A DNA stretch of 64,000 bases, from the NCBI GenBank assembly GCA_051294905.1, contig CM119372.1, forward strand, positions 7,070,001 to 7,134,000, given 5' to 3'. Source of the stretch: Botryllus schlosseri. Its lineage: Eukaryota. Shown one piece after another: positions 4,810-56,601 of this stretch. Positions within the stretch are counted from its first letter, which is position 1; the number at the start of each line of letters is the position of its first letter. A program made the position numbers and the translations under genes. The notes below the pieces were generated by a model. That model did no database searches. It was not told the DNA's origin and saw only the letters and a list, made by a program, of their open reading frames with translations.

Positions 4810-7800
4810 TCACTTAATATTTGAACGTGTGGCCAATTTCCCTGCATGACTTTGTGCATTCGATTTCCTCGATACATTTCTTGCATAAGCATGCAGTCTT
4901 AATTTAATGTATCGGAGCGCCATTCTGGAAAAGGCGACATTAGCGTGGCACGGGGGGAAATCATTTGGTATCGAAAGTTTTTCAAAAATAAACAGGTCAG
5001 GTGAATTTTCGAACCGTGCCAAATCTATATTACTGCGAAAAATTGTTTCTATAATCCGGAAAAAACGGAGCATTGACGGAGTCGGGTGGGTTAAGTATTC
5101 ATCCTCGTTCGCAATTGACAAATTTCCACCCTTAGTGTAGGACCGTATTACTGTTAAATTTGAAGAACTGTGAGATGAACGGAGAACTGGTTCCTGTACA
5201 GAAAAATGCGAGCGACAACTCTCGCACTCTGAATGCTTGATTTCCTTAGCGATCACCCAGCCGCAAACGTAATAGTGCGCATTTGCTTCTCCTTCGTCCA
5301 GGCAAGCGTCGGCAAGTAACTTCAAATTTTCTTCCACTTCGTGTCTCTCCTCCCGTTCTTGATTTTTGTGGTTGTCCACCGCCGATTTCAAAAAATCTAT
5401 CAAATTCGCTGAATCATCCTGCTCACAATTCTCCCCTGTGCTGCTTCCCATGTACTGCGATACGCAAATGAGTTTTAAGGCGTTACGGAATTGTATCGCT
5501 TTCGGGTGTGATTGGCCACGGCTTCTTATCTGCAAGATATATAGACTACAATGTCAAGCACATTTCTGTTACTTCAGCGCAGAATCGATAATACCACATA
5601 TTAGCCTACCTGCGCAAAAAGATTCTCTACGGCATCTTGCGTGAGGCGGCCAGTGAGAAGGTATTTTAGTTCACCTCCGATTACCAGCGTCTGATGGAGA
5701 TAGAGGACGCTTTGGGAGGACATCAATATCCCAGTCTGGACAGGCTTCCATCCTGGCTTCGAAAATACGAGGTCCGCAGTCATTTTGATAGCCTTCGATT
5801 TTAATTACGATAAGTGGATAATTGTGATGAGCCATTGCAAAATATCAAATTACCATTTCGATTGATTGTATTTTTGCATCGGAGGTGGCAAATAAACCTT
5901 CTACTGGCCTTCTAGCATTCATCAAATCGAACCAATTATTGTAAAATTCGCAGAAAAAGGCAGTTGTCTCTGCATCCTTGTTAACAGCACCGCAGGCGTG
6001 CATTGCTCGTAGAGCAGACGCGGTGCTGTGACTGAGTACCTGGAATAAATTTGATATGGTATATCCAAAGCCAACAGATGCATAGGCCTAGGACTACATG
6101 GAATGCAATATCATGACGAATATTGATATCTCACTTGAGCAGCAGTGCAAACTCTCATCTTCTCAAGTTTTGTCGGGTGAACGTGTTTTTGAGTAAGTTT
6201 TGGTGCCATTTTCAGTTCCTTACCCTCCTGGTAGTTGACTAATTCCTTTACGTAAGATGAAGAAACCTAAATTTCGGAGATGATTGTGATGGCTTAAAAA
6301 TATTAATATTAGTCCTACCATACCGTTGCGGAAGTTAATGGGATATCCGGTATTGCCAATGCATATTCAGGCAAGTAAATCTCATTGGATAAAAATGAGG
6401 TCCGTTAATTTTTTATAAGATGAGGGACATCAGCCACGAAACATAGCTTCGCACCATCAAGATGCGGATGGTCAACCAACGACGATACTTGATTTCTAGT
6501 TGGTTAAAACGTTCGCAGTTAGTTGAACTGACAAAGGTGATCTATACTAATCGTCACCAAACCTTCCTGTTTTGATTTTGGCAGATCGCCACATTGCTTG
6601 ATTGGATGGCCCCATATCGCTCACGACAGCAGCGACGAACATTCCTCGTCGACCCAACTCTTTGATCAATGTTTTTGTCACTTCCCACAATTGATCGCCA
6701 GATACCGAATTTCCCGTGAAATAATAAGCTGTTAAATTCAATATGAATTTTCCCTAAGATGTGTATTCTTTATAATACGAGTATACTGTCATATATATAT
6801 ATATATATATATATAAATACTATACCTATTACTTGCTTCCACTTTGTGGCAAGTCCCTTCAGCATGAAGCACAGAGCGTGTGATGCGAATTCTTGTCGTT
6901 CGCCTGACCTGAACTCGGGGCTGACGTACCCGACAAATGATTTTAATCCGGGGTCGAATTCCGCGCTCTGGGACAGCTGCATTTCATCTAGAGCTAAAAT
7001 GCAGTTCCTGTCCCAGTCATGCAGGCTGCCTAGTTTTTTGGCAATCCAATCCAAGACTATGTACTGGATTCCAGCAGCAAACTTCAGTGATACCACCCGT
7101 TCACAGAGCGTACGATAAGAGGGAAGAGGATAGGAGGATTTTCTCAAGTATTCATATCTGAAGATCATTATTATACTGTTGGAGCTAAAAGACTTAAATA
7201 AATCCTGTAGTTATCTACCCGTGTTTTCCTGATGAAAACCTGATTTTCAATGCTGACATAATTGTGTCATCGCTCCATTTGCATCCAGAGGCCTGCCCTT
7301 CTCTTTTCAAAACTTGAATCTGATCCTCGTTAAGAAACCTTCCTATCACCTTCTCCACCCGTTCCATCTTATCGGAGCTTACATTCAACTACCAAAATGA
7401 TCAGGAATTAGGTGCAATAACGCTATATAATCACATTTGGATATCTTGCATGGTTCTCTGTATTTGAAACGTAAAAAAGGCTAATGAATTTCACAAGGAT
7501 TTCGCATTACCTGCGATTTAAGCCGCGCAATTTCTTCATCTTTCTCCTGACACTGGCCTTGGAGCTGCAATTTGTAAGTAGCGATTTTATATCGCAGTGG
7601 GTGATATGAGCTGTTACTGTGTCTGCACTGAAAGTTATGGAGCCATCGGCAATATTTAATCTTACCAGTTCCAGCTCCTGCCTCAACAGGGTACACTCAT
7701 CACAAGAAGCCTCTTCGATGATAGTCTAAATGAAGAGATTATTTGTGCAGACGAATGTTGCTTATTGCCAAAACATGTGAAAAAGCAATGTTGATCTACC

Positions 7801-10803: not shown

Positions 10804-13800
10804 GCGTGTGCTGAGAAGCACCATCCTAGATCTCCTCTGCCGACCAAGCGCCCAAATATACGTTCTGCTTTTCTGAAATCTAAATTATGTGCAGTGCACC
10901 CATATTCGTTAACAAAACCATTCATGAGCTAGCTAGCTTCGTGATAGGTAATCGTAGCTCGAAATTGGAGGGTGTGTTGGTGTGTGCCTACAAATTGGAA
11001 TTAATTTCTTCGCAGATTCGCTTTGCCCGTGACATTAAACGGGAGATGTAGCAATACAGCTTAAACACCGATATAATGAGAAAACAATTGTCGCGACGAA
11101 AGCCACTCAATACAGTTTCACACTCAAAACCGATTCGTGGCGATACTGATTAGATGACACGCTTTCTTATTTGCCATCATCCATATTTCTTGTTATCTAC
11201 TTGATACATTCGTACTCCGAAATTGTAGCCAGACATGGGGTGATTACTTTATGAATGTAATCGATTGCGATTACGATTACTTCCGAATGACGCGATTACG
11301 ATTACGATTACAGCAAAATCAGGAAGTAGTCGATTACGATTACGATTACATTGGAAAAGTAATCACGATTACTCACGATTACATTTATTTTGCATTTTAG
11401 AAGTTATATCGGAAGACAATATGTGGATTGCGCTGAAAAGGCCTAATGAGAAAACAAACTTCCTATAAAAAGATGCGTCATTTGCTTGTTACGTCATAAT
11501 GTATCCATTGCCCATTTTTATATAGGACGATTTGTCGCGCCAGGTCCATGACTTCCGCACCCCAAATTTACCAATAGGGTGGGGAGCGAGCTTGAGAGGG
11601 ACTCAAGAGCATTTCATAAACCAACATAACTTATAGATTATTCTCGAGAGATTCAATCAACTTGAAAATTCTCTCTAAATAAGCTTGATTTTGGAATGCA
11701 TACGTCTCCCCCTCAACAAAAAAAGCATACATAATTTATAGTAGGCTTGTATTTAAAACAAATGGTTGTTTAAAACACATTGTTTAAAACTGTTTTAAAC
11801 AAAGGATTTAAAAAAAAAACTATGTTGTGTTTTTTTAAGTTTTAAAATTATACCATAATTGTGTAAGTAAATAATGCTTACCACAATTACCACCCGATTT
11901 AGCCGAACATGTTTTAAACAGGGGCCTTGTTGTAAACATGCTCGTTTCAAATTTATTTTTGTTTTAAATGCAACCCTAATTTATAGCAATTGGCATTTAG
12001 GTTCCAGTCAATACCGTGCCACGACACACGAAAAGACATGCAATTTCGACCAACACGTGACTTCACGAAGTGTGCTACTAAAGAAAAACCTTTGCCGAAA
12101 CTTGGGGTATGTGTCCATTGTCAATAGCCGCGCTGGGTAGGACTAATGGTCCGGTCCTTCCATTCCGAGCCCACAATGCAAATGTCACCCGGACACCCAC
12201 AGAGCATTAAAGACATGACAATTTGTGTGCGCGTCTCGCGAAAGTTTTTCTTTTAGTCTGCTACATAAGGGATAAAACAATGTCTTTTGATTATATAACA
12301 GACCGGAAGTCACGAATTAACAACATGCACTAAAGTAATTATAAAAAGATAACAGACGTTATAATTATGAATTACGTGAGTAGTATATAGGATCGGTCTG
12401 GGGGTGGCAGGGGTTCTTATGGGCCCGCTCGCACATCGCCGTGAAAACTCGTGTTGGCATATCGCGCTTTTAGACCCCCCCTTCCGCTCGCACATCGCCA
12501 TTGGTTCTTATGGGTGCGCTCGCATGTCGCACTTTCGGGTATAGGCATCTCTCGCACATCGCCGTGAAAACTCGTGTTGGCATATCGCGCTTTTAGACCC
12601 CCCTTCCGCTCGCACATCGCCATTGGTTCTTATGGGTGCGGTCGTGACTCGCCATTTTTGCTATAGGCTGCGGTCGTGATTCGCCGTGAAAACTCGTGGT
12701 CGTGACTCGCCTTTTTTGCTATAGGCTGTGGTGGTGATTCGCCATGTATTCTTACGGGATCTGTGATGATTCGCCATGTGTTCTTATGGGTGCGGTCGTG
12801 ATTCGCACTTTCAGACATCTCTCGCGTGGTGTTGAATAGTCACCAACAATAACCGCACAAACGGAAACGTGGCTTGCAAGAGGATTAAGCAGTGCGACCT
12901 ATATTTCGAATGACCTGCGCGCTGAATTGTTTCACAGCCAACCGCGGTGGTCGTGACTCACCTTTTTTACTATAGGTGGTGACGGTGATTCGCCTGTCGT
13001 GTATTCTTACGGGGTCTGTGGTGACTCGCCATGTGTTCTTATGGGTGCGGTCGCATGCGGCTATTGCGTCTTATTGTGGTGGTGGTGAGCGGCTATTGAT
13101 GCTAACACGAAACCCGGGGTGGCGAGCGGCACTTATTTCTTATGGCGGCGGGTCTTATTTCTTATGGGTGCGGTCGTGATTCGTACTTTCGGTAAAGACT
13201 GCGGGCGGCATGTCGTACTTTCAGCAAAAAAGGTGTGAAATAGTTTGCCAAGTCTAGGAATCACTTGCAAGGTAATATTTTGGTATTTAGTTTACCACAG
13301 AGCCGGCGTAGACGGCGATTCGAATATCAACAATAACAACGCTCACGAATTAACACTTCAAATAGCTGTGAAATAGTTTGCAAAACCCCGCGATCGCTGA
13401 CAAGATAATGTCTCGGTCATAACCATCTTTCACGACTTGGTGTCATAACCATACCGATCGCTCACGCGGTGAAATTTTAGTAATCAGTTTGTCACAGAAC
13501 TTGATTTCGCTGGTAAGATTTAACAAGTAACGAATAACAGACCGCGGTAACTTGAATAGCGACAAATTGTCACTTATTTCCGCTCTAACCCTAATCCTTT
13601 GTGAAGAGAACGCTTATTCAAAAGGTTGTGATATAATTTTAAAATCCAACGACCACTCACCGGATAATGCTTCAGACATATAGCAATCTCTCATACCCGC
13701 TCACAAGGTAATATTTCGGTAATAAGTTCGTCACAGAGCCGTCGCAGACGGTGATTCGAAAACCAACAATTTGTCACTCGCCCGCGATCGCTATATGTTT

Positions 13801-14280
13801 CACGCCTCCAGAATAGTGGCTGACTTTAGTTGCGTGATAAGATCCATGAAAATATTCAATCAATGTGTTAGTTTATCAACTTGAAATGAAACTCACTACA
13901 CAAATCAAGTCGATTCGTATCTGAATGTTTTAAATCGGTACAACTCTAATCCTTTGACAAATCTTTAACGCGTTTTTGTTGAATCGAACGTAACCCGAAT
14001 ATTACTGACGCCGACTTTCAGCCGCATCGAATTATTCGCACATTCCGCGCCACTGTTTTCACACTTATAGAATCAATACCAACTATAACTCTACAAGAAT
14101 CAAGAATCACAAGTACGTGCATTACACAGTTATTGTCTTTATCAACTTGAAATCAAACACTTAACAAAAACACACAACTAATCATTTGGCAACTCTAGCA
14201 ATACCAAAAAATTCCAGTATTGTTGATTGAAAATCCTTGAGTCATTATTATCAAAAATGTTATAGTACCGCATCGGGATC

Positions 14281-14397
14281 CATTCGCGGGATGTACTAAA
14301 GGTAAATCCAAATAATCCACATTCGCGGGATGTACTAAAGGTAAATCCAAATAATCCACATTCGCGGGATGTACTAAAGGTAAATCCAAATAATCCA
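14281..14397. repeat. 39-bp tandem repeat x3 (mirror copy at about 23499-23615)
   Basis: Unit CATTCGCGGGATGTACTAAAGGTAAATCCAAATAATCCA. Confidence 0.9.
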
Positions 14398-17300
14398 GAA
14401 TGAAATATTTGGACTTTGACATAGTGTGAATTGAAATAGGATTGACAAACACGACTACCAACTTTGATCCAGCCACATTTCAAGATCATACTTTGAAACA
14501 AGTAATGTAACATTACAACTCTATTCACGATCCCGCTTTCCATTTGTCAAAGAGATATTTTAACATCTTACCATACTCAAAAGAATTATTCACAACATTA
14601 ACAATTGTTCAAAATCTAGTTTTCACCTACTTGATTATATCACTGCAACTCATAAATTTGAATTAATTCATCCTGGTTGTATTCGTATGCTCGGTCTTTT
14701 TTATTCAATTGTAAAGGTTGTTACTATTCTGAAGACAAAGTATTTACAAATCGGTGCATATACGATTTGACTTGGACATACTATATTTCGAGTATACGAG
14801 ATTTGAATGTCTGAACAATAACTGAGAAATAATTTATCACAATTAAATCCGTAATATTACAGCGTAAAAGATATTGGAATGTCAGCAACTCTGTAAGGTC
14901 ATAGTTACTACCACTAATTTACCCGACCAACTCGTCATGATCATTCCTGAAATCAACACAAACGTGACCACTGACTTGAGTTAACCACAAAACAGCATCA
15001 AGTTTTAAATCCACTTGTAGCTTACGGCTTATTTGAATGCGGGTTATGTTTTGTTGTAATTGAGTGTACAGAAATAGTATTACGTCTCGACATATCACCA
15101 TGTCGGAATTTGTGACAGAGAATTGAAACATATGCACTTTACAGAGTGTGAAAATATCACTTTGAGTATCGAGTACCGTTCGAAGCTAGCGATCAATTCT
15201 TAATCATTTCAGTAGCTCCCCATTGTGTGTGCTAAATGTAAAATATCGCGAGGTTATACACTCTAAGACTTTGATCATTACAAAAGTAAATTGTGATATG
15301 TTTGTTAGATGCATCCAATTCAACTAGAAGTGTCTAGTGCCCAACACTCGTAATATCAAAAAAGTACTTGCTACACTGTTATTTGCTACGTGTTATGCAT
15401 TGTTGTTTATTTGTAGTATTGAATGAAATTGTTCTTGAACCCTCAAATAATAATCCCCGACATGAAACCAAGCCGCTGAAAGTCGTTACCATCACGAAGA
15501 TAGAATGTGTACGATGTTTGTCAAATGTGTCCTACCTGACCAACAGAAAACAATTTTCACTAGCTTGGTAATGAAACCGAAGTCTCCATTCGATATTTTG
15601 TTTGTGTCAAATACTTTGCAATGAACACATTTGGGTGGTTGAGCTTTACATCATCAGACTGTCATCTGTACATCAAGAATACATCCGACTTGTAACCGGA
15701 TCGTTTACCTAACCGAGTTGTATGCACAGTTTGATATTTTTGTCATTTAGTGATTGCTGAACATACCACTTCGAAATACTGCGTTGATCTTAATTTCCAT
15801 CATCGTGATAAGTGAAGTACATTTGTTTTGAATTCATAACAATAGGCTTTTCTACGACATGGTAAATTATTGACAAGTTCTGCTTAGAAGATTGGTTGCA
15901 TATCACGAAAAATAATATACCACACATATTATTACTGTTACTCCATTCATCGGCATTTTTTCCGTTGTCGATTTTCAAACGAGTAAAATTTATTACTTGA
16001 GTTGCTCTGCTTACTATATTTAAATGTAAACTCGCCCGTCTTTCAACAACAAACAATGTTAAAAAAGTATGCAATCAAACACAACAAGTTTTACGATACT
16101 AATTATTATCCCACATAACCCATTTCTTACCGAAGACATATGAAATATATTCATGTTACACGAAAATATTCGCTCATGCTACAAACCTGTACAATGATTG
16201 GGGGGTGCTTTCAAACTGTTTCGATACCTCAAGAACTTTATTGTCTGAACGGTTGTTCATGTATCGTAATAATCAAGTAGTTCAACATAGAACTAGTATT
16301 AACAGAAACATCAGAGTTGTTTACACAAAAGTTTGTATGCGTGCAGTATGCGAATACCATGTGTAAGTCCAGCACAATTGTGGTATCCATCCGGGTTTAG
16401 TTAACACAATTTACGACACCGAGGTCACCTCATCTTTCGTAAGACAACAAACCAACCAAGGTTTCAGGATATGTCCGTGTCATAGCAATAAATCAGCTAC
16501 TACAACAACAGAGTACATATGTTTTCTAGTTACGGCGCTTACGTCTTACACACAAATCAATCCACTTTGCTAACAAAAAGTGCTGGGTCATCAAGTGATT
16601 ACCCTAACAACAAAACAGCTAAACGTACTATCATACAAAATGGCCGTTATAGTCACCAACGGTACATCGTACAAGTAACAAGTCTCGAGAATCCAGTTAT
16701 TGAAAAAACATGAAAGTGTTTCTACACCAAGTCGTTATGTTGACGAAAGCGTATATTGTAATATCATGATCGATTTGCATTCGTTGGTCACAAAATGTCA
16801 CTACTCTAAATAATTATTTTTCACTCAAACACAAACGCATACTTGTCGCCAATCGTTTTCATCAAGCACGAGTTCAAGAAACCTGCTACGACATGAATTG
16901 TTATTTTTTTATGTTGTGTAAATAGGTAATAATGAATTTTAGTAACACTATATCAACATCATCTAGTTGCGCGAATAGATTTACACGTGGTCTTGTGGTT
17001 TTAATCGAAGTACACAGCGCGGTCTAACGCGGAGTCATCTCTATTGTACAGCAACTCGGAAATCGAAATGCATGCATTAACATTTAAACAGCGATCGCGT
17101 TTCGTGACGCGAAAAATATGTTCACCACCGCGATACTCTGCACAGGGCGTGCAAATCCTTTTCACACTCGTAATAGTATACCAACGGCTACCGGCGACAA
17201 CGTTTAACAATACCAACGACACTAAACATACGATACCTACCCAAGTAAAATTTCCATTTTCACCTGGAGGTCAGCCGTTACCTGACTAAAAATACCATTG

Positions 17301-19789
17301 TCCTTTGGAGATTTATCGTTTACCCAGTGTAACAATCCCCTTTTCACTTGGAAATATATTTTTGACCTGGATAACAAACCCCTTTTCACTTGGAAATCTA
17401 TTTTTGCCCTGGATAACAAACCCCTTTTCACTTGGAAATCTATTTTTGCCCTGGATAACAAACCTTTTCCACTTGGAAATATATTTTTTCTCTTGGTAAC
17501 AAACCTTTTTCACTTGGAAATATATTTTTTCTCTGGTTAACAAACCTTTTTCACTTGGAAATATATTTTTTCTCTGGGCAACAAACCTTTTTCCCCGGGT
17601 AACAAACCTTTTTCCCTGAGCAACAAGCCCTTTTCACTTGGTGGGTCGTCGTTTACCTGAGTAAAAATATCATTTTCCTTTGGAGATCTGGCGTTTACCC
17701 AGTGTAACAATACATTTTCTCTTGGTCATCTAGCTTTTCCTAGAGTAACTAATCATTTCTCCTGGGTAACAAACCCTTTTCGTCTGGAAAACTATCATTT
17801 ACCCGAGTACCAATACCGTTTTCACTTGGAAATCTATCTTTTCCCTGGGTAACAATATCATTTTCGTTTTGAAAACTGACAACCACACCGGCCAATTTGA
17901 TATTTTTGGATATTGTTACAACGGATAGTGACAAAATATACACCAACAACGACTCCGATACATTTGTCTAATCAAATATTCACTTGCTCTGATGCATCCC
18001 ATCAAAATCATTGGTTACTCACATACAATAACAATGTGCTGTTGTACATCGACATGTATGTTTTCGGAATTGGCGAATAAAGGGGTTTCCGATATGTCTG
18101 TGATGTCCGGGTTCGTGCTTTGGATTTTCCAGAATCAAAATGTCTGAATAAAACACCCCCCTTGACTTTGGTAACTGGTTGATACACGGATAATGGTGTT
18201 CGGAAAACGGATGAATTTATGTTCCCCATCGCGCTAATAACTCTGGGTTACTTGTGAGTTTCCTCAGGTCTGTTTACTATATTGTGTCTTTACTGGTCAA
18301 TACATGTCGCTCCAGTCAGCTGCAACTGGCATAATGTATTTGGTGATTACCATCGTTATCAATCTTTCACGTGATGAATATGTCGGATGTCGCTACTCCC
18401 ACATAACGACTCCAGCTAAACATCGTGAGCAGTGACTCCGGATTGAAATCGTAAACAGGGACTCTGTGTGTGTGTGTGTGAATCTCGAGTTCGATTACGA
18501 TTAGAGAATGTAATCCAGGGTGTGTCTCTGCGAGCTGAAGGCGGATTTCGTGTTAATCACACCGCAAGAGGGTGCTATCTCGTAACTCGACAGGTCAACA
18601 TAAATCGCGGTTGGAAACTTTTGGTCTAGTTGATCCAGCTACGTATTGAAACGTTGTACCCACACAGCCCATTGAGAAAACGTTGTCGTTACCTGACCAT
18701 ATCCACGAGTAAATATGGGACTACGCGTAACTGTCCATAGATTCCTCTGGCCCCACACCGTGGTTTTACGACACAGACAAGATGCAGCGGTGGAAATATT
18801 AAAAATGAAAAACGATACCTTGGTGACATTTGATTTGGATTTTACACCTGACGAACCATACACTCGATTGGTACATTGGGATGACAACTCTATCGTCGAG
18901 GTCAAGGGAAAAGAAATGTACAGATTTGTTGGTGTTGTGGATATTCAGCGAAAATCAGGGTATATGGTTGTGTATGGTTCGCATATTTGACTGAGAATAT
19001 ATCGGTATACATAATGCACTGTCCATTGTATCATGTCGTGTGTCATCTATGCCCACATTGAATGTACAGAGTCGTCGCATGATGAGACTTGAGAACATGA
19101 ATTTGTTTTCCATGATGTTTGTACACCGACACATTGTATGTACACCTCGTTTACGCGAATACTTGTGAACAATCGTGACGTTACTTGTATGTGATGGTGT
19201 ATGCATTGGTATTTTTCATGGAGACAAAACACGGCCTGTAACATGTTTACTTGAATATTGGTCGTTGGTTCATGAGTGAATATCCGGATCAGGCCCACAC
19301 ACTTTCTCATATTAGTGATCCGGTTGCAGCTGACTGGAGCGACATGTATTGACCAGTAAAGACACAATATAGTAAACAGACCTGAGGAAACTCACAAGTA
19401 ACCCAGAGTTATTAGCGCGATGGGGAACATAAATTCATCCGTTTTCCGAACACCATTATCCGTGTATCAACCAGTTACCAAAGTCAAGGGGGGTGTTTTA
19501 TTCAGACATTTTGATTCTGGAAAATCCAAAGCACGAACCCGGACATCACAGACATATCGGAAACCCCTTTATTCGCCAATTCCGAAAACATACATGTCGA
19601 TGTACAACAGCACATTGTTATTGTATGTGAGTAACCAATGATTTTGATGGGATGCATCAGAGCAAGTGAATATTTGATTAGACAAATGTATCGGAGTCGT
19701 TGTTGGTGTATATTTTGTCACTATCCGTTGTAACAATATCCAAAAATATCAAATTGGCCGGTGTGGTTGTCAGTTTTCAAAACGAAAAT

Positions 19790-20660
19790 GATATTGTTAC
19801 CCAGGGAAAAGATAGATTTCCAAGTGAAAACGGTATTGGTACTCGGGTAAATGATAGTTTTCCAGACGAAAAGGGTTTGTTACCCAGGAGAAATGATTAG
19901 TTACTCTAGGAAAAGCTAGATGACCAAGAGAAAATGTATTGTTACACTGGGTAAACGCCAGATCTCCAAAGGAAAATGATATTTTTACTCAGGTAAACGA
20001 CGACCCACCAAGTGAAAAGGGCTTGTTGCTCAGGGAAAAAGGTTTGTTACCCGGGGAAAAAGGTTTGTTGCCCAGAGAAAAAATATATTTCCAAGTGTAA
20101 AAGGTTTGTTAACCAGAGATAAAAATATATTTCCAAGTGAAAAAGGTTTGTTACCCAGAGAAAAAATATATTTCCAAGTGAAAAAGGTTTGTTAACCAGA
20201 GAAAAAATATATTTCCAAGTGAAAAAGGTTTGTTAACCAGAGAAAAAATATATTTCCAAGTGAAAAAGGTTTGTTAACCAGAGAAAAAATATATTTCCAA
20301 GTGAAAAAGGTTTGTTAACCAGAGAAAAAATATATTTCCAAGTGAAAAAGGTTTGTTACCAAGAGAAAAAATATATTTCCAAGTGAAAAAGGTTTGTTAC
20401 CAAGAGAAAAAATATATTTCCAAGTGGAAAAGGTTTGTTATCCAGGGCAAAAATAGATTTCCAAGTGAAAAGGGGTTTGTTATCCAGGGCAAAAATAGAT
20501 TTCCAAGTGAAAAGGGGTTTGTTATCCAGGTCAAAAATATATTTCCAAGTGAAAAGGGGATTGTTACACTGGGTAAACGATAAATCTCCAAAGGACAATG
20601 GTATTTTTAGTCAGGTAACGGCTGACCTCCAGGTGAAAATGGAAATTTTACTTGGGTAGG
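19790..20660. repeat. Minisatellite of about 41 bp in the right arm (shorter mirror array at about 17240-17860)
   Basis: Unit approximately CCAGAGAAAAAATATATTTCCAAGTGAAAAAGGTTTGTTAA. The right arm is 247 bp (about 6 units) longer than the left. Confidence 0.9.
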
Positions 20661-23600
20661 TATCGTATGTTTAGTGTCGTTGGTATTGTTAAACGTTGTC
20701 GCCGGTAGCCGTTGGTATACTATTACGAGTGTGAAAAGGATTTGCACGCCCTGTGCAGAGTATCGCGGTGGTGAACATATTTTTCGCGTCACGAAACGCG
20801 ATCGCTGTTTAAATGTTAATGCATGCATTTCGATTTCCGAGTTGCTGTACAATAGAGATGACTCCGCGTTAGACCGCGCTGTGTACTTCGATTAAAACCA
20901 CAACACCACGTGTAAATCTATTCGCGCAACTAGATGATGTTGATATAGTGTTACTAAAATTAATTATTACCTATTTACACAACATAAAAAAATAACAATT
21001 CATGTCGTAGCAGGTTTCTTGAACTCGTGCTTGATGAAAACGATTGGCGACAAGTATGCGTTTGTGTTTGAGTGAAAAATAATTATTTAGAGTAGTGACA
21101 TTTTGTGACCAACGAATGCAAATCGATCATGATATTACAATATACGCTTTCGTCAACATAACGACTTGGTGTAGAAACACTTTCATGTTTTTTCAATAAC
21201 TGGATTCTCGAGACTTGTTACTTGTACGATGTACCGTTGGTGACTATAACGGCCATTTTGTATGATAGTACGTTTAGCTGTTTTGTTGTTAGGGTAATCA
21301 CTTGATGACCCAGCACTTTTTGTTAGCAAAGTGGATTGATTTGTGTGTAAGACGTAAGCGCCGTAACTAGAAAACATATGTACTCTGTTGTTGTAGTAGC
21401 TGATTTATTGCTATGACACGGACATATCCTGAAACCTTGGTTGGTTTGTTGTCTTACGAAAGATGAGGTGACCTCGGTGTCGTAAATTGTGTTAACTAAA
21501 CCCGGATGGATACCACAATTGTGCTGGACTTACACATGGTATTCGCATACTGCACGCATACAAACTTTTGTGTAAACAACTCTGATGTTTCTGTTAATAC
21601 TAGTTCTATGTTGAACTACTTGATTATTACGATACATGAACAACCGTTCTGACAATAAAGTTCTTGAGGTATCGAAACAGTTTGAAAGCACCCCCCAATC
21701 ATTGTACAGGTTTGTAGCATGAGCGAATATTTTCGTGTAACATGAATATATTTCATATGTCTTCGGTAAGAAATGGGTTATGTGGGATAATAATTAGTAT
21801 CGTAAAACTTGTTGTGTTTGATTGCATACTTTTTTAACATTGTTTCTTGTTGAAAGACGGGCGAGTTTACATTTAAATATAGTAAGCAGAGCAACTCAAG
21901 TAATAAATTTTACTCGTTTGAAAATCGACAACGGAAAAAATGCCGATGAATGGAGTAACAGTAATAATATGTGTGGTATATTATTTTTCGTGATATGCAA
22001 CCAATCTTCTAAGCAGAACTTGTCAATAATTTACCATGTCGTAGAAAAGCCTATTGTTATGAATTCAAAACAAATGTACTTCACTTATCACGATGATGGA
22101 AATTAAGATCAACGCAGTATTTCGAAGTGGTATGTTCAGCAATCACTAAATGACAAAAATATCAAACTGTGCATACAACTCGGTTAGGTAAACGATCCGG
22201 TTACAAGTCGGATGTATTCTTGATGTACAGATGACAGTCTGATGATGTAAAGCTCAACCACCCAAATGTGTTCATTGCAAAGTATTTGACACAAACAAAA
22301 TATCGAATGGAGACTTCGGTTTCATTACCAAGCTAGTGAAAATTGTTTTCTGTTGGTCAGGTAGGACACATTTGACAAACATCGTACACATTCTATCTTC
22401 GTGATGGTAACGACTTTCAGCGGCTTGGTTTCATGTCGGGGATTATTATTTGAGGGTTCAAGAACAATTTCATTCAATACTACAAATAAACAACAATGCA
22501 TAACACGTAGCAAATAACAGTGTAGCAAGTACTTTTTTGATATTACGAGTGTTGGGCACTAGACACTTCTAGTTGAATTGGATGCATCTAACAAACATAT
22601 CACAATTTACTTTTGTAATGATCAAAGTCTTAGAGTGTATAACCTCGCGATATTTTACATTTAGCACACACAATGGGGAGCTACTGAAATGATTAAGAAT
22701 TGATCGCTAGCTTCGAACGGTACTCGATACTCAAAGTGATATTTTCACACTCTGTAAAGTGCATATGTTTCAATTCTCTGTCACAAATTCCGACATGGTG
22801 ATATGTCGAGACGTAATACTATTTCTGTACACTCAATTACAACAAAACATAACCCGCATTCAAATAAGCCGTAAGCTACAAGTGGATTTAAAACTTGATG
22901 CTGTTTTGTGGTTAACTCAAGTCAGTGGTCACGTTTGTGTTGATTTCAGGAATGATCATGACGAGTTGGTCGGGTAAATTAGTGGTAGTAACTATGACCT
23001 TACAGAGTTGCTGACATTCCAATATCTTTTACGCTGTAATATTACGGATTTAATTGTGATAAATTATTTCTCAGTTATTGTTCAGACATTCAAATCTCGT
23101 ATACTCGAAATATAGTATGTCCAAGTCAAATCGTATATGCACCGATTTGTAAATACTTTGTCTTCAGAATAGTAACAACCTTTACAATTGAATAAAAAAG
23201 ACCGAGCATACGAATACAACCAGGATGAATTAATTCAAATTTATGAGTTGCAGTGATATAATCAAGTAGGTGAAAACTAGATTTTGAACAATTGTTAATG
23301 TTGTGAATAATTCTTTTGAGTATGGTAAGATGTTAAAATATCTCTTTGACAAATGGAAAGCGGGATCGTGAATAGAGTTGTAATGTTACATTACTTGTTT
23401 CAAAGTATGATCTTGAAATGTGGCTGGATCAAAGTTGGTAGTCGTGTTTGTCAATCCTATTTCAATTCACACTATGTCAAAGTCCAAATATTTCATTCTG
23501 GATTATTTGGATTTACCTTTAGTACATCCCGCGAATGTGGATTATTTGGATTTACCTTTAGTACATCCCGCGAATGTGGATTATTTGGATTTACCTTTAG

Positions 23601-26192
23601 TACATCCCGCGAATGGATCCCGATGCGGTACTATAACATTTTTGATAATAATGACTCAAGGATTTTCAATCAACAATACTGGAATTTTTTGGTAATGCCA
23701 GAGTTGCCAAATGATTAGTTGTGTGTTTTTGTTAAGTGTTTGATTTCAAGTTGATAAAGACAATAACTGTGTAATGCACGTACTTGTGATTCTTGATTCT
23801 TGTAGAGTTATAGTTGGTATTGATTCTATAAGTGTGAAAACAGTGGCGCGGAATGTGCGAATAATTCGATGCGGCTGAAAGTCGGCGTCAGTAATATTCG
23901 GGTTACGTTCGATTCAACAAAAACGCGTTAAAGATTTGTCAAAGGATTAGAGTTGTACCGATTTAAAACATTCAGATACGAATCGACTTGATTTGTGTAG
24001 TGAGTTTCATTTCAAGTTGATAAACTAACACATTGATTGAATATTTTCATGGATCTTATCACGCAACTAAAGTCAGCCACTATTCTGGAGGCGTGAAACA
24101 TATAGCGATCGCGGGCGAGTGACAAATTGTTGGTTTTCGAATCACCGTCTGCGACGGCTCTGTGACAAACTTATTACCGAAATATTACCTTGTGAGCGGG
24201 TATGAGAGATTGCTATATGTCTGAAGCATTATCCGGTGAGTGGTCGTTGGATTTTAAAATTATATCACAACCTTTTGAATAAGCGTTCTCTTCACAAAGG
24301 ATTAGGGTTAGAGCGGAAATAAGTGACAATTTGTCGCTATTCAAGTTACCGCGGTCTGTTATTCGTTACTTGTTAAATCTTACCAGCGAAATCAAGTTCT
24401 GTGACAAACTGATTACTAAAATTTCACCGCATGAGCGATCGGTATGGTTATGACACCAAGTCGTGAAAGATGGTTATGACCGAGACATTATCTTGTCAGC
24501 GATCGCGGGGTTTTGCAAACTATTTCACAGCTATTTGAAGTGTTAATTCGTGAGCGTTGTTATTGTTGATATTCGAATCGCCGTCTACGCCGGCTCTGTG
24601 GTAAACTAAATACCAAAATATTACCTTGCAAGTGATTCCTAGACTTGGCAAACTATTTCACACCTTTTTTGCTGAAAGTACGACATGCCGCCCGCAGTCT
24701 TTACCGAAAGTACGAATCACGACCGCACCCATAAGAAATAAGACCCGCCGCCATAAGAAATAAGTGCCGCTCGCCACCCCGGGTTTCGTGTTAGCATCAA
24801 TAGCCGCTCACCACCACCACAATAAGACGCAATAGCCGCATGCGACCGCACCCATAAGAACACATGGCGAGTCACCACAGACCCCGTAAGAATACACGAC
24901 AGGCGAATCACCGTCACCACCTATAGTAAAAAAGGTGAGTCACGACCACCGCGGTTGGCTGTGAAACAATTCAGCGCGCAGGTCATTCGAAATATAGGTC
25001 GCACTGCTTAATCCTCTTGCAAGCCACGTTTCCGTTTGTGCGGTTATTGTTGGTGACTATTCAACACCACGCGAGAGATGTCTGAAAGTGCGAATCACGA
25101 CCGCACCCATAAGAACACATGGCGAATCATCACAGATCCCGTAAGAATACATGGCGAATCACCACCACAGCCTATAGCAAAAAAGGCGAGTCACGACCAC
25201 GAGTTTTCACGGCGAATCACGACCGCAGCCTATAGCAAAAATGGCGAGTCACGACCGCACCCATAAGAACCAATGGCGATGTGCGAGCGGAAGGGGGGTC
25301 TAAAAGCGCGATATGCCAACACGAGTTTTCACGGCGATGTGCGAGAGATGCCTATACCCGAAAGTGCGACATGCGAGCGCACCCATAAGAACCAATGGCG
25401 ATGTGCGAGCGGAAGGGGGGGTCTAAAAGCGCGATATGCCAACACGAGTTTTCACGGCGATGTGCGAGCGGGCCCATAAGAACCCCTGCCACCCCCAGAC
25501 CGATCCTATATACTACTTACGTGCCTCAACTCTACAGGTAAATCTGACCATCGGGGGCAGAGAGAGAGAGGATTAAAAATTAATAATAATGTAATGCGAT
25601 TACCAATATTATTGACGAAATTCAGTCTTCAACTTGAAATTATCACCCTATGGGGCCAAAGACCAACGTTTGGACTGGGGGACGAACAGCTGTTTTGGTC
25701 CTGATTCTAGCTACAACCCACGCTAACATGATATATAAGCCCATGGCTATAGGCGCTGGTCCCAATGTTGAGTAAAGAATTATGAAATAACGATTGACGC
25801 ATGTTTCAAGCAGAGTCATATGAGCAGAACATAAAATTCTGCCTACAACTTAGGCCTAATACAGATAATATACTGCAAGCTGCCGCTACGAGAAATGGGA
25901 AAAACGGCCCGGTTATGATATATATCAGCAGCTGTTGATTTTTATTGCTTCGTTGTGGAAACCTAAATGTTTTATCTGTTGAGTACTAAATTTCAAATCT
26001 CTGTCCAGTGTAGGACTACGTACGTACTACATAGGCCTACTGCTCGCCAAGCAGCAACGGTCAAACTGCGTTTGCATAACCAAACATCAATACACAAGTT
26101 ACTAGGCAAAGTGGTGATTAACTATCCTGCTGCGGGGTACTGGCGGGTGGAACGTGTTGATAACCTGATATACAGCACGGCGGGCGTTATTA

Positions 26193-27163
26193 CGGTTGCC
26201 GGTGAACCAAGCCTTACAAACTCAGCCCTCGGTGAACTCGGCCCTCGGGAAATTTTGTATTCACGGATTGAGTAAGCGGGGGAGATAACGCGACGCTCAC
26301 ATACTCTACTTGTTTGTTTTGTGGTATTCATGGTGTTTCTCGAATACTATGGACCTCGGTGAATTCCGCCCCCGAACAATTTTGAATTAAAGCTGGGAGC
26401 TGGGATATTAGGGTTGGCGGAGGTAGGATATTAGGGTTGGTGGAGGTGGGATATTAGGGTTGGTGGAGGTGGGATATTAGGGTTGCCGGAGGTGGGATAT
26501 TAGGGTTGCCGGAGGTGGGATATTAGGGTTGCCGGAGGTGGGATATTAGGGTTGCCGGAGGTAGGATATTAGGGTTGCCGGAGGTAGGATATTAGGGTTG
26601 CCGGAGGTGGGATATTAGGGTTGCCGGAGGTGGGATATTAGGGTTGGGGGAGGAGAGATATTACGGTTGGTGGAGGTGGAATATTAGGGTTGCCGGAGGT
26701 GGGATATTAGGGTTGCCGGAGGTGGGATATTAGGGTTGCCGGGGTGGGATATTAGGGTTGGGGGAGGGGAGATATTAGGGTTGCTGGTGAATACAAAATT
26801 TCCCGAGGGCGGAATTCACCAAGGGCCGGGTTCACCGAGGTCAGAGTTCACCTAGGGCCGAGTTTGTAAGGCTGAGTTCAACGAGGTCTGATCGATATGT
26901 GAACGTCGCGTTCTTTCCCGCGCTGGGCGCTTGCGCAATCCGTGACCTGATCACGCCGTGACTGCGTGATCTACGCATGCCCTGACCTTACAAGATCGAC
27001 AAATCAGTTGATAATAACATTATTAGTTTAATAATTCATAATAGTACTTGTTAATACACTCAACTACAAAAGTTCCCGAGGGCCGAGTTCACCGAGGTCC
27101 GAGTTCACCGAGGGCCGAGTTTGTAAGGCAGGGTTCACCGAGGGCTGGGTTCACTAGTAATCG
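26193..27163. mobile_element. Unclassified non-autonomous DNA transposon with CGG/CGA-type ends and an internal TTAGGG-containing minisatellite
   Basis: Imperfect TIR CGGTTGCCGGTGAACC / GGTTCACTAGTAATCG; probable 6-bp TSD TTATTA/TTCTTA; absent from the homologous site in copy A (about 2655); repeated GAGTTCACCGAGG motifs. Confidence 0.7.
26400..26790 (+). repeat. 23-bp G-rich minisatellite, about 17 units
   Basis: Unit GGGATATTAGGGTTGCCGGAGGT with variants. Confidence 0.9.
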
Positions 27164-38000: not shown

Positions 38001-41000
38001 TCTTCATGCTTCCCGATGTCATTCGATTTCTTTCTTTTAATATATTGTTACATCCCCCCCCTGAAGATGAGAGAACGTCTAATGTACCAGATCGAATGTA
38101 ACTATATTCGAAGTTGCGAGAGAAAGTGTCATGTTCAACATGCGACCTTACGTTTGCGCTCGCAGAAAGAACGTCGAATATGAAAAAAATTTTGCGCCTG
38201 GCGCGGCTAGTGGCTCGCGCGCTGGTTTGTCAATTGCATTTGGCCCTTTGACCAAAAAGGTTGGCCACCTCTGGGCTGCAGCAAGCAATCTTAAATTCCT
38301 TTTCGCTTTGTTCTGATCGTGGGTCTAGTGAGTATATTCTCATAATTGATGTCTACATCACAAATGTAATCTCTATGCTGGCTGATTTGTTCTGTGGCTG
38401 GCTTGTTCTGTGGGTCTGTATATCAGTTGAAACAAGCTGAGCACAAAATATAAATAGGACTTGTTAATTTTACTTTAGCATGAAGATCTGGGACAAAGAT
38501 AAAAACTGCATGGCATTTCATGTCATCTGCGATGAAATATGGATGCATGGCTAAGGATAGATCGGCATTCAATGTCATTTGCTATTAAAGAAGCTAAATG
38601 GAAATTCGGAACCTTATAGATGACTGTCATTTCTGTATGGGTGACATTCCAAGGTTAGAAATAACTAAAAATGACTTAACATTGCATATCCTTCTATGTC
38701 ATCTACTCTTAAGCACCTGTTCCGTATTGTAGTAAGTTTTCACTGCCCAAACAAACTATCGGTCAAAAAAGCTCAAAGAATCGACAGGGCTTGAAGATAA
38801 TAAAAATGAGTCCAATGACGACTTCAACATCTCCCATATAGATATAAATCCAAAACCACACATTCATAACCAACACGAACTTGATGATTTAGTCGGGACT
38901 CATTGAATCAAATGCGGAAATTCTGACTCCAAGGTTGAAAGTAGGGAACGATGTCCATCGTCGAGAAAAAGGCATGAACGATTTTCACTTATTCCGTAAT
39001 ACCAGGTGATTTCTCAGTCTATAGACCCAAATCATGCAAGGCGCTACCGAGGCGATATTTGTGCATATTCCTTCGTTTTGTGAGTGGATTTGTATGTCCA
39101 ATAAGGAATTACGCGTATTATTACTATGCGTATTATTACATGTGAATTTTGAGTGTAATGTGAAATCACAAAAAGTGACATTTTTCAAAGACATGATACA
39201 TGAAAATTTTTACTCGAATAAAATTTTGTGTAAAAATTTTCATGTATCAATTATGGTGTTCTTTTTGGTCCATAATAAGATTTCTCATTTCGCAGACGCA
39301 AGTCACGCAAACAGAACCACTTCTGACGATTTTTCAAGTGTTGCTTTGTTACTTGATGCTTGTTCATATTAACCTTTTCATAAGCGATTTTTTACCTCCA
39401 ATAATGAATTATTGTGATTAATGAGGAGCAATGATAACTAAAATTGAAAATTAGAGAAATTGACATTACTTGTAAATTTGGGACACTTCAGTCAAAATTT
39501 TGCTACTTTGGTATTTGGTTTGGAATACTAAAACACAAACATGAAAAGCTAAAACTTATTGCAAAATTTTGTTACATGGTGTTATTCGCGTTCAGTGGAA
39601 CCTGTGTTGTGGTAAAGGGTATTATGATATCAACAAACTTTTCTGAAACATCGTTATTAGCACATCGATTTGTAAAACTGAATTAACATTTCCAAAATAT
39701 TCTTGATTGGAAATTAATCCATTTGTCACGATCGCAACAATGTGTCACAGAACGGTATAATGTACTCGCCAACTAATATTTTACAAATCAATCGTTTTCA
39801 ATAACCAAGACTGAAGATACAATAACAATTTCGGTATTGATACATTCAACAACCGGTACAACACTTTATTGTTGGGATCTGCGACAAGGAATTGGAACAC
39901 ATACACACGCACATAACGGTTTTGTTTATTTGAATCCTGAAAATTACCGGCTATGATAATGTTTTCTGTGGGACTAACACATTGCGTGCAATGTCATACA
40001 CCTCATTTACGCGAAAACTTGGTATGGGTGACACTGAACAATCGTGAAGTACTTGATGTGTGGATGGTGTATGCATTGATATTTTTTTCATGGAAACGAA
40101 AAACACGGGTTGTAACATATTTATTTGAATATTGGTTGTTGGTTTATCGATTCAGAGTGAATATCCTGATCCGGTCACATCTTTCTCATGGTCATCCGAT
40201 TTCAAACTGAATGAGGTGATGTGATATGCATTTAACAATAACGATTAACACAATAAAGTAAACATACATATGCGTGAGTAAGAAAACTCGCAAACATACA
40301 ACCCGGAATTGTTAGCATGATGGGAAGAACGAATTCATCCATTTTCAGAAGATCGTCACCGTTACCAATGTACCAACCAGTTACCAAAGTCGTAATCGCG
40401 GCATATGAAAAAACAGGCTTCAGCGAACGAATGTCCGCTGCAGTTAATACAGCCTATATGATTTTAGTCCACGGATTAATATTCCAAACCAACATCCAGC
40501 TTAACATCTAGCCGTTGAAATTGAGCCAAATTTGCTGTGCAGCGGTTTTTTAGAGACGACTTAAATTTAGCTAATAAGCCTCGAAAATTTGGAAAAAGTT
40601 ACTTCTCCAATAACCCTAATATATACCCACTTGTTTTGCAGGAAGTCAATATGTAACTGTAGTGAAGGGTTCACCCAGCCGATATGCGAGAAGAAAGACA
40701 GAAAAGACTATTGCAAATTGAAACCGTGTAAGGCCGGGACCTGTCATAACGGCACCAGGTGGCGAAAAATTTGACAGCTGTATCTTTTCCGTTGGTGTGC
40801 ATTGCACAAAATTGTTGATCGTGCAGCTGCTGCGAACTTTAGCTGCTAGAAAATTCTACTTGTCCAATTAGACTAATTATGAGAGAACTGCCTGTAATGT
40901 AATTCTAATCTAGTTTGTGAAATTTTTCTATGCTCATCCTAATTCTACTTTCTGTTTTCCTGTACATGCTACAGAAGAACTGTACAGTGCGAAACGAGCC

Positions 41001-53567: not shown

Positions 53568-54244
53568 AGAACAACCTGGATCACAAATCATTCTCTCCGA
53601 AAGCGGTCGTGCGGTAAACAGGGCTTCCACGCCGCTCTGAATCTGACTCTAATTAATGTAATTTCTCATTTAGAGTATATGCCAGCGTATTTTTTAACGG
53701 TATGATATAGTCTGGGTTGTTTGATCGACATTCTACAATACACACAAGAGAAAACTTACTGTGTCCGGACTTATTAGCCAGTTAATTATACTCAGTCAGT
53801 CATTACTCGCAGCGATTGCTCCAGTCCAACTCGCCGTCGAGTTGTAACAGTTCTGTGAAGGACTGAATGTGTCAATAACAAGGACATAAGTTAAAAAATA
53901 CGAGAGCTGACTGACATCGATATGTATCGAACACTGCAAGCCGCCGGTCGACAGGTTTTGAGCAAGCAGCATATCGACGAAGCCCTTCGGAATTCCAGCG
54001 CCGCTTACCATAGAGCCGAGCGCGCTTTCTCACACGCCATACAATATGCATCACTACTACACGTCACTAAATGTAAAGACGAATTCCACAAAGTTTGCGG
54101 TCAACTCACCGACGAGTTGGACCGATTGTACGAAAAAGCGGAAAAAGACCTCTACCTTCGTGACAGTATCCAAGAAATACATTTACTGATATTAACTGTC
54201 AGCGTCATGCAAATCGCGCTTACCGAGCCTACCGAGAAGAAAAC

Positions 54245-56601
54245 ATGAACTCATCTTCAAATGTCGCCCTTGACTGCATTAAACCTCGAACTTTCAATAA
54301 ATCACTGAGTATTCATTCCATCACGCCGTCCGGAACGTCAGCAACAGTCCGAAACGCTAGGCTGACACTCGAAAGGATTAAACTGAGACAAGAACAGAGA
54401 AGAGCCGAATCTGCCCTGAGACAAGAAGAGAGAAGAGCCGAATCTGCTCTGAGACAAGAAGAGAGAAGAGCTAGAATTGAATCAATCGATGCCGAATTTG
54501 AATACAAACGGGAGCTCCTCGAAGCTACCTCGAACTTGGAACTCGCAGAACAAGAAGCCTTCTTGAAACGCTCTGTCGGATCACAAAAACCGAACACTCT
54601 AATTGACAAAAACACTACCGTGAGTACTGAACCCTTACCTTCGCCCACTACTCAAGCAATGACTTTCACTACCTTGTGCACGCCTGCATCTGTACCAGTC
54701 AACAGTACTGGGCAGAGGCTCGTTCCTAAGCCGGCAAAAACCCAACCGTTACCGACCACTCGTCAGCTAACCTCATCAGCAATACCATGTCATTCCCAGT
54801 CTATCTATTCGCATAGTTTCACTGCCGGTTCGAGGCCGGTCATTCCCGCATATTCTCAAAGCACTCAGCAGTGCCAGAGTGGCCTTAGATCTAGTGATAT
54901 ACCTTCTCGTTCTCGCGGTCAGTCCGCTGATATTTGTTACGTGCCAAATGCGCACAATGATATACCTTCTCGTGCTCGCGGTCAATCCGCCGATATTCGT
55001 TACGTGCCAAATGCGCACAATGATATACCTTCTCGTGCTCGCGGTCAATCCGCCGATATTCGTTACGTGCCAAATGCGCACAAGGATATACCTTCTCGTG
55101 CTCGCGGTCAATCCGCCGATATTCGTTCGTGCCAAATGCGCACAATGATATACCTTCTCGTGCTCGCGGTCAATCCGCCGATATTCGTTACGTGCCAAAT
55201 GCGCACAATGATATACCTTCTCGTTCTCGCGGTCAATCCGCCGATATTCGTAGTGTGCCAACCGGGCACAACGATGTCATTCCTCGTTCTCGCGGTCAAT
55301 CCGCCGATATTCGTAGTGTGCCAACCGGGCACAACGATGTCATTCCTCGTTCTCGCGGTCAATCCGCTGATATTCGTAAAGTGCCGAACGCGTGCACTGA
55401 TCTTATTCCTCGTTCTCGCGGTCAATCCGCCGATATTCGTAATGTGCCAACCAGGCACAACGATCTCGCTTCTCGCTCTCGCGATAAACTCGCAAATCAT
55501 CGTCGTACAGACAATTTCAATGCTGATCTCGTGCCCTTAGCGCACAACAAATACAGTTCTCATGCTCGCGATAAAGTCGCTCCTACCTTTAGTTTTATCT
55601 ACGAACCTGAGTGCGTCCTTGAGCCCGTAAATGTAAATTCTAACGATAAGCACTCCGCTCGAACCGAACCCACATCTTATCCTCGCAAGCTTTTCGAAAG
55701 CCTCCCGCCTGCGTCTGACACACCACACAGTGGTGTCGGTCAGAGGCCCGTTAATGGGCCGGCGCCCGCACCGATAAATTATCCAAACCCTAAACCTAGT
55801 CCATGCGACTCCCCTAATCATGATACTGCTGTAACCATCAAACTCTTCGGGGATGTAACCATGAAATTCTTCGGGGCTGTTCCCAGAGCTCAATTCCGAA
55901 CAGTCATTCCAAGTAGTACCAATGTCCCTACTGGGCCTGTCATATCTGCAAACAACGATGTCCCTCCGCAGGGACGGAGAGACCTGATACCTGTTACTGT
56001 AAGTGACAGTTCGACTTACTGTGCCCCTGGTTATGGCAAACTCGACATTTCTGGAAACTCTGATACCGACACACAAGCTGAACTCGATGATTCCGAAGAC
56101 TGTGACGCCAACACGCAACCTCTGTCCAACGTAGAAGACGCTGCGCCTCCGCACACAACAAACATGCGCCACGAAGTGTTTCCGCTCAAGAAAACGGAGA
56201 CCGTCAAACCGCCCTACAACAAAGAAGCTGCCAAGATGTCACTCAAAAACCAACGCACTACATTTGCGGAAGAACCCGAGTTCTTTCGAAAGTACAAAGA
56301 GAAAATCAACGAGTACCTACCTCGGCGGTACGCTCAAGTCGTTCCGCCTGACTTGCCCTCTTCGTCTGAACGACCTTCCAAACCTATCCATTTCCATACC
56401 CAACAACGAAAGATGCCAAGCAGACGCAAACTGCAACTTGCCCCAGCCGTATCCGGCAACAAACTTGCTACAGAGGTTGGAGAAGATTTCAACTACGTTA
56501 TCGACTCCGCTCGCTTCTGTACCGACAGCACCGCAATGCTCCGCAGCATTCAAACGACCTCCGCTCGATTCAACGCCTTCGTCCGTCAACGACCGCCTTG
56601 A
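54245..56601 (+). pseudogene. Gag-like coiled-coil/repeat protein fused to Bel/Pao pol remnants, split by a 1-bp deletion
   Basis: ORFs 54245-55540 and 55129-56601 join if the base missing at about 55127 (CGTTCGTG versus CGTTACGTG) is restored. Remnants PYNKEAA...KYKEKINEYL..RYAQVVP and KLQLAPAV...FCTDSTAML...FNAFVRQR. No YVDD or integrase. Confidence 0.75.
54895..55480 (+). repeat. 63-bp (21-codon) coding tandem repeat, about 9 units
   Basis: Peptide unit DIPSRARGQSADIRYVPNAHN and variants. Confidence 0.9.

Follow-up and report, generated by a model that had tools for sequence, protein, structure and literature searches.

Palindromic transposons with Maverick-type ends and a conserved loop gene in the genome of Botryllus schlosseri

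The subject of this report is a palindromic element of about 13 kb found in a 64,000-nucleotide stretch of the Botryllus schlosseri genome (GenBank assembly GCA_051294905.1, contig CM119372.1, positions 7,070,001 to 7,134,000 of the forward strand; hereafter the window), and the described systems closest to it are the Maverick/Polinton elements (polintoviruses), the snap-back or copy-back defective genomes of viruses and the foldback transposons. We know of no direct demonstration of the replication or movement of Mavericks/Polintons. Snap-back or copy-back genomes are exemplified by the incomplete genomes of adenoviruses and by the symmetric recombinant of adenovirus Ad12, and among the foldback elements FB makes target-site duplications of 9 bp and Galileo of 7 bp. 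The snapback genomes of adeno-associated virus provide a further example of the defective class (in the portion of PMC8235507 accessible to us). Vertebrate Mavericks are reported to have 5'-(AGT)2//(ACT)2-3' ends and perfect 6-bp duplications (PMC8097293, in the excerpts available).

The family to which the window element belongs resembles the Mavericks in its (AGT)2...(ACT)2 ends, its 6-bp duplications and its terminal inverted repeats, and autonomous Mavericks occur in the same genome. Unlike the Mavericks, in which these repeats measure hundreds of base pairs, the family has inverted repeats of about 6-7 kb, which account for over 90% of the element's length; its sole conserved open reading frame (ORF) encodes an orphan 91-amino-acid protein, Maverick core genes are missing, and it lacks similarity to the Maverick interior that we read (7.5 kb of one element). 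With snap-back defective genomes it shares the palindrome over its whole length, the two copies of one genome end and a dependence on a helper, which we infer here; however, the family is heritable, integrated, divided into subfamilies and equipped with a selected gene of its own, rather than being made anew in each infection. Foldback elements (FB and Galileo of Drosophila, TU of sea urchins) likewise have terminal inverted repeats of great length with tandem repeats inside them, and most of their copies are non-coding, but the 6-bp duplications, AGT-repeat ends and mostly unique, several times longer arms of this family set it apart from them, as does a conserved loop gene that does not code for a transposase. 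The palindromes of primate Y chromosomes also have arms more than 99.8% identical around a unique spacer, but these are not mobile, whereas the present family shows target-site duplications and hundreds of dispersed copies. Full-text literature searches, with Repbase and Dfam outside their scope, recovered no description of palindromic elements with Maverick ends.

A repeat finder and direct reading place the window element at positions 12379-25517, with AGTAGT at its start (AGTAGTATATAGG... from 12379) and ACTACT at its end (...CCTATATACTACT at 25517); its parts are given in Table 1. Alignment of the left arm with the reverse-complemented right arm (MAFFT) shows exactly 10 substitutions (0.168%) and a single gap of 247 bp, which corresponds to six more 41-bp minisatellite units in the right-arm mirror. 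The subterminal zone of each arm contains direct repeats of 122/123 bp together with about nine copies of a 32-bp motif, the core of which, TTCTTATGGGTGCGG, is present in four exact copies per arm. The best-conserved block of the arm is 92-97% identical in seven of the nine other copies compared, with C1a at 88% and C8a at 83-87% in pieces. Chance is ruled out as the source of the palindrome, because a 6-kb inverted repeat stands at 99.8% identity and because the control for its terminal 21-mer (see below) was near zero. The original prediction, made from the sequence of the window, had described the AGTAGT...ACTACT termini with an exact TACGTG duplication, both of which we read at that site, and about ten substitutions between the arms, the very number that the alignment gives. 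Its arms of 5948 and 6195 bp and spacer of 996 bp come within a few bases of the measured lengths without equalling them; its statement that no ORF exceeds 121 amino acids fits the longest stop-to-stop frame, which has 122, but it overlooked the conserved 91-codon ORF in the spacer.

Searches of the assembly (495.5 Mb in 219 contigs) with the terminal 722 bp of the window element recovered many matches, arranged in plus/minus pairs 11-17.5 kb apart. The copies read were the window copy, ten fetched loci, one 17-kb locus and one 7-kb locus, making 13 sequences, 12 of them full-length. Self-comparison shows every one of the 12 full-length copies to be palindromic, the arms measuring 6.0-7.5 kb when nested inserts are set aside, and 11 of the 12 combine the AGTAGT...ACTACT ends with a perfect 6-bp duplication that differs from copy to copy (TACGTG, TATATG, CACGAG, GACGAG, TCTGTT, CGTGTG, AGTAGC, AGCGTT, CTCGTG, AATGTG and TACGTC). 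As the duplications at the 11 copies are all different, these are independent insertions and an assembly artefact is excluded. One variant of the terminal 21-mer, with up to two mismatches allowed, has 290 forward and 285 reverse matches in the genome (575 together), against 0 and 1 for the same pattern read backwards; the first 100 of these places comprise 42 plus/minus pairs and 16 unpaired ends, and the pairs have a median span of 13.57 kb (12-16 kb in 33, 6.9-8.7 kb in four, some 15-28 kb). A 23-base motif of the spacer ORF matches the genome 423 and 362 times (785 together; control 1 and 0), a number from which we estimate about 800 copies; multiplied by a span of 13 kb, this gives a family load of some 10.6 Mb, roughly 2% of the assembly. 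Relatives about 99.5% identical to the window copy, as judged from bit scores, are present at other loci such as C1, C2 and C10, and the background haplotype of the window copy over 85 nucleotides is common to twenty pairs among the matches listed. A single recent insertion of an abundant, recently active family of non-autonomous DNA transposons accounts for the element at 12379-25517. It had been foreseen that the element, if multicopy, would stand for a class of giant foldback parasites and that other palindromic copies with different duplications should be sought: the 785 motif matches and 575 terminal 21-mers establish the multicopy state, and such copies were found, all 12 full-length ones being palindromic with 11 distinct duplications between them. 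Further family copies lie outside the window at C2:7060451 (about 10 kb upstream) and C2:7142223-7143484 (about 8 kb downstream), and the sole other trace of the family within it is a 158-bp fragment at 40035-40189, which matches the far end of the spacer in the element at 82% identity.

The spacers, which separate the arms, measure 778-990 bp in nine of the 12 full-length copies and 336, 1158 and 1939 bp in the remaining three. Their comparison divides the copies into a subfamily A (the window copy, C12a, C5a and C6, with spacers 93-95% identical to each other) and a subfamily B (C13, C1a, C2b, C3L, C5b, C8a and C9a); C11, with its 336-bp spacer, gives only short matches and was placed in neither. 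Within a subfamily the spacers align from the first to the last base, as in the pairs C12a/C6 and C13/C1a, and the borders between arm and loop are identical, whereas between the subfamilies only about 245 bp of spacer can be aligned, at about 76% identity, and this segment coincides with the 91-codon ORF. The homology of the spacers, their end-to-end alignment and the shared arm/spacer junction together indicate that the family's ancestor already had the palindromic design with this junction and that both have been passed on through transposition. The window copy had been explained by a template switch of its own, an account at odds with 12 of 12 palindromic copies that have the same junction and homologous spacers; relatives with terminal inverted repeats of about 6 kb, which the same account had named as evidence against itself, do exist, though those found are non-autonomous. 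A one-off copy-back product was rejected on the ground that a fresh switch per copy would not give common arm/loop borders. A single ancestral copy-back event is possible as the origin of the first palindrome.

The two arms of a copy differ by 0.015-0.64% in 11 of the 12 full-length copies, the exception being C13 with 14%, and the terminal 722 bp of different copies are only 81-94% identical. In a maximum-likelihood tree of a conserved 1.6-kb block, built without C3L and C8a (no match of at least 900 bp) and C4S (one arm only), each left arm has the right arm of its own copy as its sister (ten of ten copies), with copy-specific stems of 0.004-0.057 changes per column as against 0-0.013 for the tips. 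The arms of C5a are 99.98% alike, and the nearest other copy stands at 97%. A stretch of 85 bases, left unaltered and spanning two of the ten arm differences of the window copy, served as a further query against the genome, and the 100 listed of its 143 matches comprise 45 plus/minus pairs and 10 unpaired rows. One and the same string is seen on both arms in 42 of the 45 listed pairs, which represent eight haplotypes; the other three pairs differ by single variants, none of which recurs in another listed arm of the same background (in the C10 pair the position that differs falls outside the 80 nucleotides printed). Both differences of the window copy are private among the listed arms, the G at 16934 being confined to its left arm and the change at 16992 to its right, and among the listed pairs no haplotype-defining variant recurs as a one-arm variant in a second copy. 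Within a copy, the two arms undergo concerted evolution. Given the uniformity of the 42 pairs and the absence of any such repeated one-arm variant, a mutation comes to stand on both arms before its lineage multiplies or while it does so, and the data fit a chromosomal or a replicative route alike.

A few copies depart from the common design. In C3L (G000:C3:23932853-23953278) the inverted repeat runs at least 1.6 kb past the ends of the element into flanking repeats, at 99.8% identity; there is no direct duplication, and the hexamers on either side, AACCTA and TAGGTT, are reverse complements of each other. This locus has the look of an inverted duplication made in the chromosome with the arms as template. 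C13 (G000:C13:15784700-15799500) has a perfect duplication, AGCGTT, around its divergent arms, the middle modules of which differ, and looks like a hybrid of two variants and not an old decayed copy. C6 carries in one arm only a 4.65-kb element of the long terminal repeat (LTR) kind (L037 3060-7711), with direct terminal repeats of 337 bp that are 99.4% identical. The 7.0-kb C4S retains a single arm, with 113 bp of the spacer and a terminal repeat of 359 bp, has no ORF, and is flanked by hexamers that agree at only four of six positions. The idea that such 'half' elements are replicative monomers was dropped, the one read, C4S, being an internal-deletion derivative; the orientation of the spacer was likewise rejected as a test of flip-flop, because the spacer alone sets the orientation of a palindrome and strand counts say nothing.

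The ORF of the loop was detected by tblastn in 11 of the 13 sequences, being absent from C11 and from the 7-kb C4S, and all 91 codons are open in nine of the 11 copies that bear it (one has an in-frame stop and one is truncated). Between subfamilies A and B the proteins are 58-64% identical, and the ratio of nonsynonymous to synonymous divergence (dN/dS, Nei-Gojobori) is 0.22-0.42 in all 20 A-versus-B pairs, at dS values of 0.69-1.16. A scan of the genome yielded 1203 candidates at first look; the best 150 that were scored are full-length and at least 92% identical, and 149 of them have no stop, in a best-scoring sample that is biased to intact copies. The ORF is under purifying selection, and we regard the gene as real. 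Beyond this genome, a word search of 5.8 billion proteins recovered as relatives four unnamed proteins of 90-91 amino acids (67-99% identity), and a HMMER profile search of 1.84 billion representatives returned one of the four and a WD40-repeat protein, which we took as a repeat artefact, and added nothing credible. The only Pfam match of the protein is to TriTu, at an E-value of 0.11, and an Atlas search with it gave no usable match. Its AlphaFold model is an all-beta structure of eight strands (pLDDT 79.6); in fold searches of three libraries the best matches are sandwiches of the alpha-crystallin (small heat-shock) or CS type, all of them weak and below significance (Foldseek E-values of 0.014 in PDB and 0.0084 in BFVD; VIA Z of 5.2). 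In one raw RNA run, about 6% of which was read, 76 reads were placed on the element, 74 of them in part only; the depth over the ORF is 0.7-0.9, with one mate direction only, which is too thin for calling the gene expressed or silent. Runs of contigs labelled 'RNA?' cover the arms evenly and may be DNA.

A profile search of the genome with PF04665 (Pox_A32) returned 13 matches, 11 of which have an open frame of 274 amino acids. One of these Mavericks was read over the segment G000:C2:14484500-14492000, where all genes lie on the minus strand and include a polymerase-like ORF, an ATPase and an integrase. The polymerase-like ORF has at least 750 amino acids, with DxxSLY, KxxxNSxxG and DTDS-type motifs read by eye; its homologues measure 1300-1950 amino acids, and one of 13 carries PF03175. 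The ORF itself has no Pfam match beyond RAP (E-value 0.04) and no sequence match in PDB. The ATPase is of the Pox_A32 type (PF04665, E-value 1.4e-9, 274 amino acids) and the integrase, of 350 amino acids, combines rve and Chromo domains; two small ORFs and four of 131-274 amino acids complete the segment, and three of these further ORFs have no Pfam match. By these predictions, the palindromes share their genome with autonomous Mavericks that possess a polymerase-like ORF, an ATPase of the A32 type and an rve-chromo integrase. The family itself has none of the polymerase, integrase (rve), ATPase, protease and capsid genes, as judged from the frames of the 13 copies and from tblastn against six of them; for the window copy this lack of core genes had been predicted, and it is borne out by the absence of frames longer than 122 amino acids. 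The Polinton-type ends and duplication recognized in the same prediction are likewise the signature given for Mavericks in the available part of PMC8097293.

The family is probably a protein-coding, non-autonomous parasite of Mavericks, built as a palindrome of about 13.5 kb whose arms (about 6-7 kb each) enclose a loop of some 0.9 kb with the gene for a 91-amino-acid protein. We infer trans-mobilization by Mavericks from the ends and duplications alone, and the earlier idea of a 'parasite of Polintons' is plausible. Integration would be performed in trans by the integrase of Mavericks/Polintons in the same genome, and the two identical ends would offer two origins to their protein-primed polymerase. 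The single strand displaced during replication might then snap back into a 6-kb hairpin, and mismatch repair in this hairpin could render the arms symmetrical again in each cycle; the panhandle pairing of adenovirus terminal repeats provides an analogous repair of ends. Packaging may be what keeps the total size close to that of a Maverick genome.

Several observations weigh against this proposal. Hairpin replication is conjectural, and chromosomal gene conversion from arm to arm would give the same concerted pattern; C3L shows that arm-templated copying does occur in the chromosome. As C13 has a perfect duplication around arms that are 14% apart, identical arms are not required for insertion. 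The polymerase call depends on the one PF03175-bearing homologue and on motifs read by eye, and the PF03175 profile found nothing in the genome, where a control search was equally silent. A blastn comparison (word size 7) of five family members with the 7.5-kb part of one Maverick, the ends of which lie outside it, gave no match, and the best tblastn match of the resident Maverick ORFs to six family copies has an E-value of 0.039; the derivation of the arms from a Polinton, put forward in the original prediction, therefore finds no counterpart in the DNA or proteins of this piece. None of the 11 ATPase loci adjoins a listed terminus of the family. Finally, the Pfam and fold matches of the 91-amino-acid protein are all weak, and it has no tblastn match in the 7.5-kb Maverick piece.

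A bolder version of the proposal, possible but doubtful in our judgement, would make the family a virus satellite living as a transposon: its hairpin genomes would be replicated from their two identical ends by the protein-primed polymerase of Mavericks, the displaced single strands would snap back and one arm would be rewritten from the other in each cycle, they would be packaged by virtue of a dimeric, Maverick-like size, and the loop protein would hijack the helper. If true, an architecture like that of defective-interfering genomes would have become a long-lived, protein-coding and speciating parasite lineage that fills about 2% of an animal-type genome.

The arms could also be alike only through gene conversion in the chromosome, after the manner of the Y-chromosome palindromes, the family moving as double-stranded DNA by plain integrase-mediated cut-and-paste and neither replicating as an element nor forming a hairpin. 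This we consider unlikely, even though the copying in C3L that overshoots into flanking DNA and the arms of C5a, far closer to each other than to any other copy, are what it would lead one to expect; the lack of inherited arm asymmetry among the 45 listed pairs, the nested LTR element of C6 that was neither copied to the other arm nor removed, and an arm divergence that ranges from 0.015% to 0.64% as if growing with age speak against it, and none of these points is decisive.

Quite unlikely, in turn, is a foldback-type cut-and-paste family unrelated to Mavericks, whose unsampled masters would carry their own transposase between the arms, as FB-NOF and Galileo do in Drosophila, and whose ends would be convergent or derived from another integrase-like enzyme. 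The subterminal repeats and minisatellites of the arms do recall foldback elements, no similarity to the resident Maverick (7.5 kb of one) was found, and only 13 of about 800 copies were read, while some pairs span 15-28 kb. Yet frames stay below 200 amino acids in all 13 copies, the longest having 196, and this includes the four longest copies (14.7-17.8 kb), the extra length of which is due to a nested LTR element, a 1.3-kb insert or a longer spacer. Duplications of 6 bp in 11 of the 12 full-length copies also differ from those of FB and Galileo. Moreover, (AGT)2/(ACT)2 ends with 6-bp duplications are a Maverick signature (PMC8097293, in the part available).

That each palindrome, or the one in the window, is a fresh copy-back defective genome thrown off by an autonomous Polinton through a template switch is highly improbable: the element is indeed an inverted duplication along its full length whose two ends are identical, and snap-back defective genomes are a known class (PMC13506859, as far as its accessible text goes), but the copies have the arm/spacer junction and the spacer in common, the family split into subfamilies while staying palindromic, the Maverick interior that was read shows no similarity, and the loop has its own conserved gene, so that a recurrent copy-back origin is already contradicted. 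A foldback artefact of assembly, of the sort that chimeric long reads can create, has a negligible probability in view of the unique flanks and direct duplications that border this copy and 10 others on either side, of one design common to hundreds of loci, and of arms that were resolved separately, as their private differences and the 247-bp difference in length attest.

As a parasite of Mavericks with ends, a palindromic body and one small gene, the family would be a natural minimal substrate for studying Maverick/Polinton movement, and it would mark the cis sequences that matter, namely the ends, the 32-bp subterminal motifs and the conserved 1.7-kb block. The copy-specific near-identity of 6-kb arms is a readable signal by which hairpin replication and chromosomal gene conversion may be weighed against each other. 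About 800 palindromes of 13 kb furthermore constitute a large load of potential sites of cruciforms, hairpin RNA and rearrangement, of which C3L is one such rearrangement.

Table 1. Parts of the palindromic element in the window (positions count from the first letter of the window)
Feature	Position	Strand	Basis
Left copy of the target-site duplication, TACGTG, 6 bp	12373-12378		direct reading
Left arm, 5951 bp, AGTAGT first	12379-18329	+	repeat finder, reading, alignment
Subterminal repeat zone of left arm, mirror at 24706-25468	12428-13190	+	repeat finder
Best-conserved arm block, element positions ~240-1941	12620-14320	+	comparison with 9 other copies
39-bp unit, three exact tandem copies, mirror at 23499-23615	14281-14397	+	repeat finder
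41/42-bp minisatellite, inner end of left arm, mirror at 19772-20600	17254-17877	+	repeat finder, alignment
Unique central spacer (loop), 990 bp, with homologous spacers in other copies	18330-19319	+	repeat finder, spacer comparison
Conserved 91-codon ORF and stop (protein P0001), in spacer	18715-18990 (codons 18715-18987)	+	ORF comparison
Right arm, 6198 bp, reverse complement of left arm, ACTACT last	19320-25517	-	repeat finder, reading, alignment
Right copy of the target-site duplication, TACGTG	25518-25523		direct reading

Elsewhere in the window, a tandem array of about 20 units of 23 bp lies at 26327-26811, 800 bp downstream of the element. The stretch at 54164-56788, the most GC-rich of the window and strongly negative in GC skew, contains overlapping long frames of 458, 525 and 217 amino acids on the plus strand, for which there is no Pfam match, and of 166-233 amino acids on the minus strand. 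At 6773-7210 on the minus strand, a 146-amino-acid frame matches the N-terminal part of the RNase H domain of transposases of the P-element/THAP9 type (PF21787, E-value 3.3e-17) and is probably a transposon relic.

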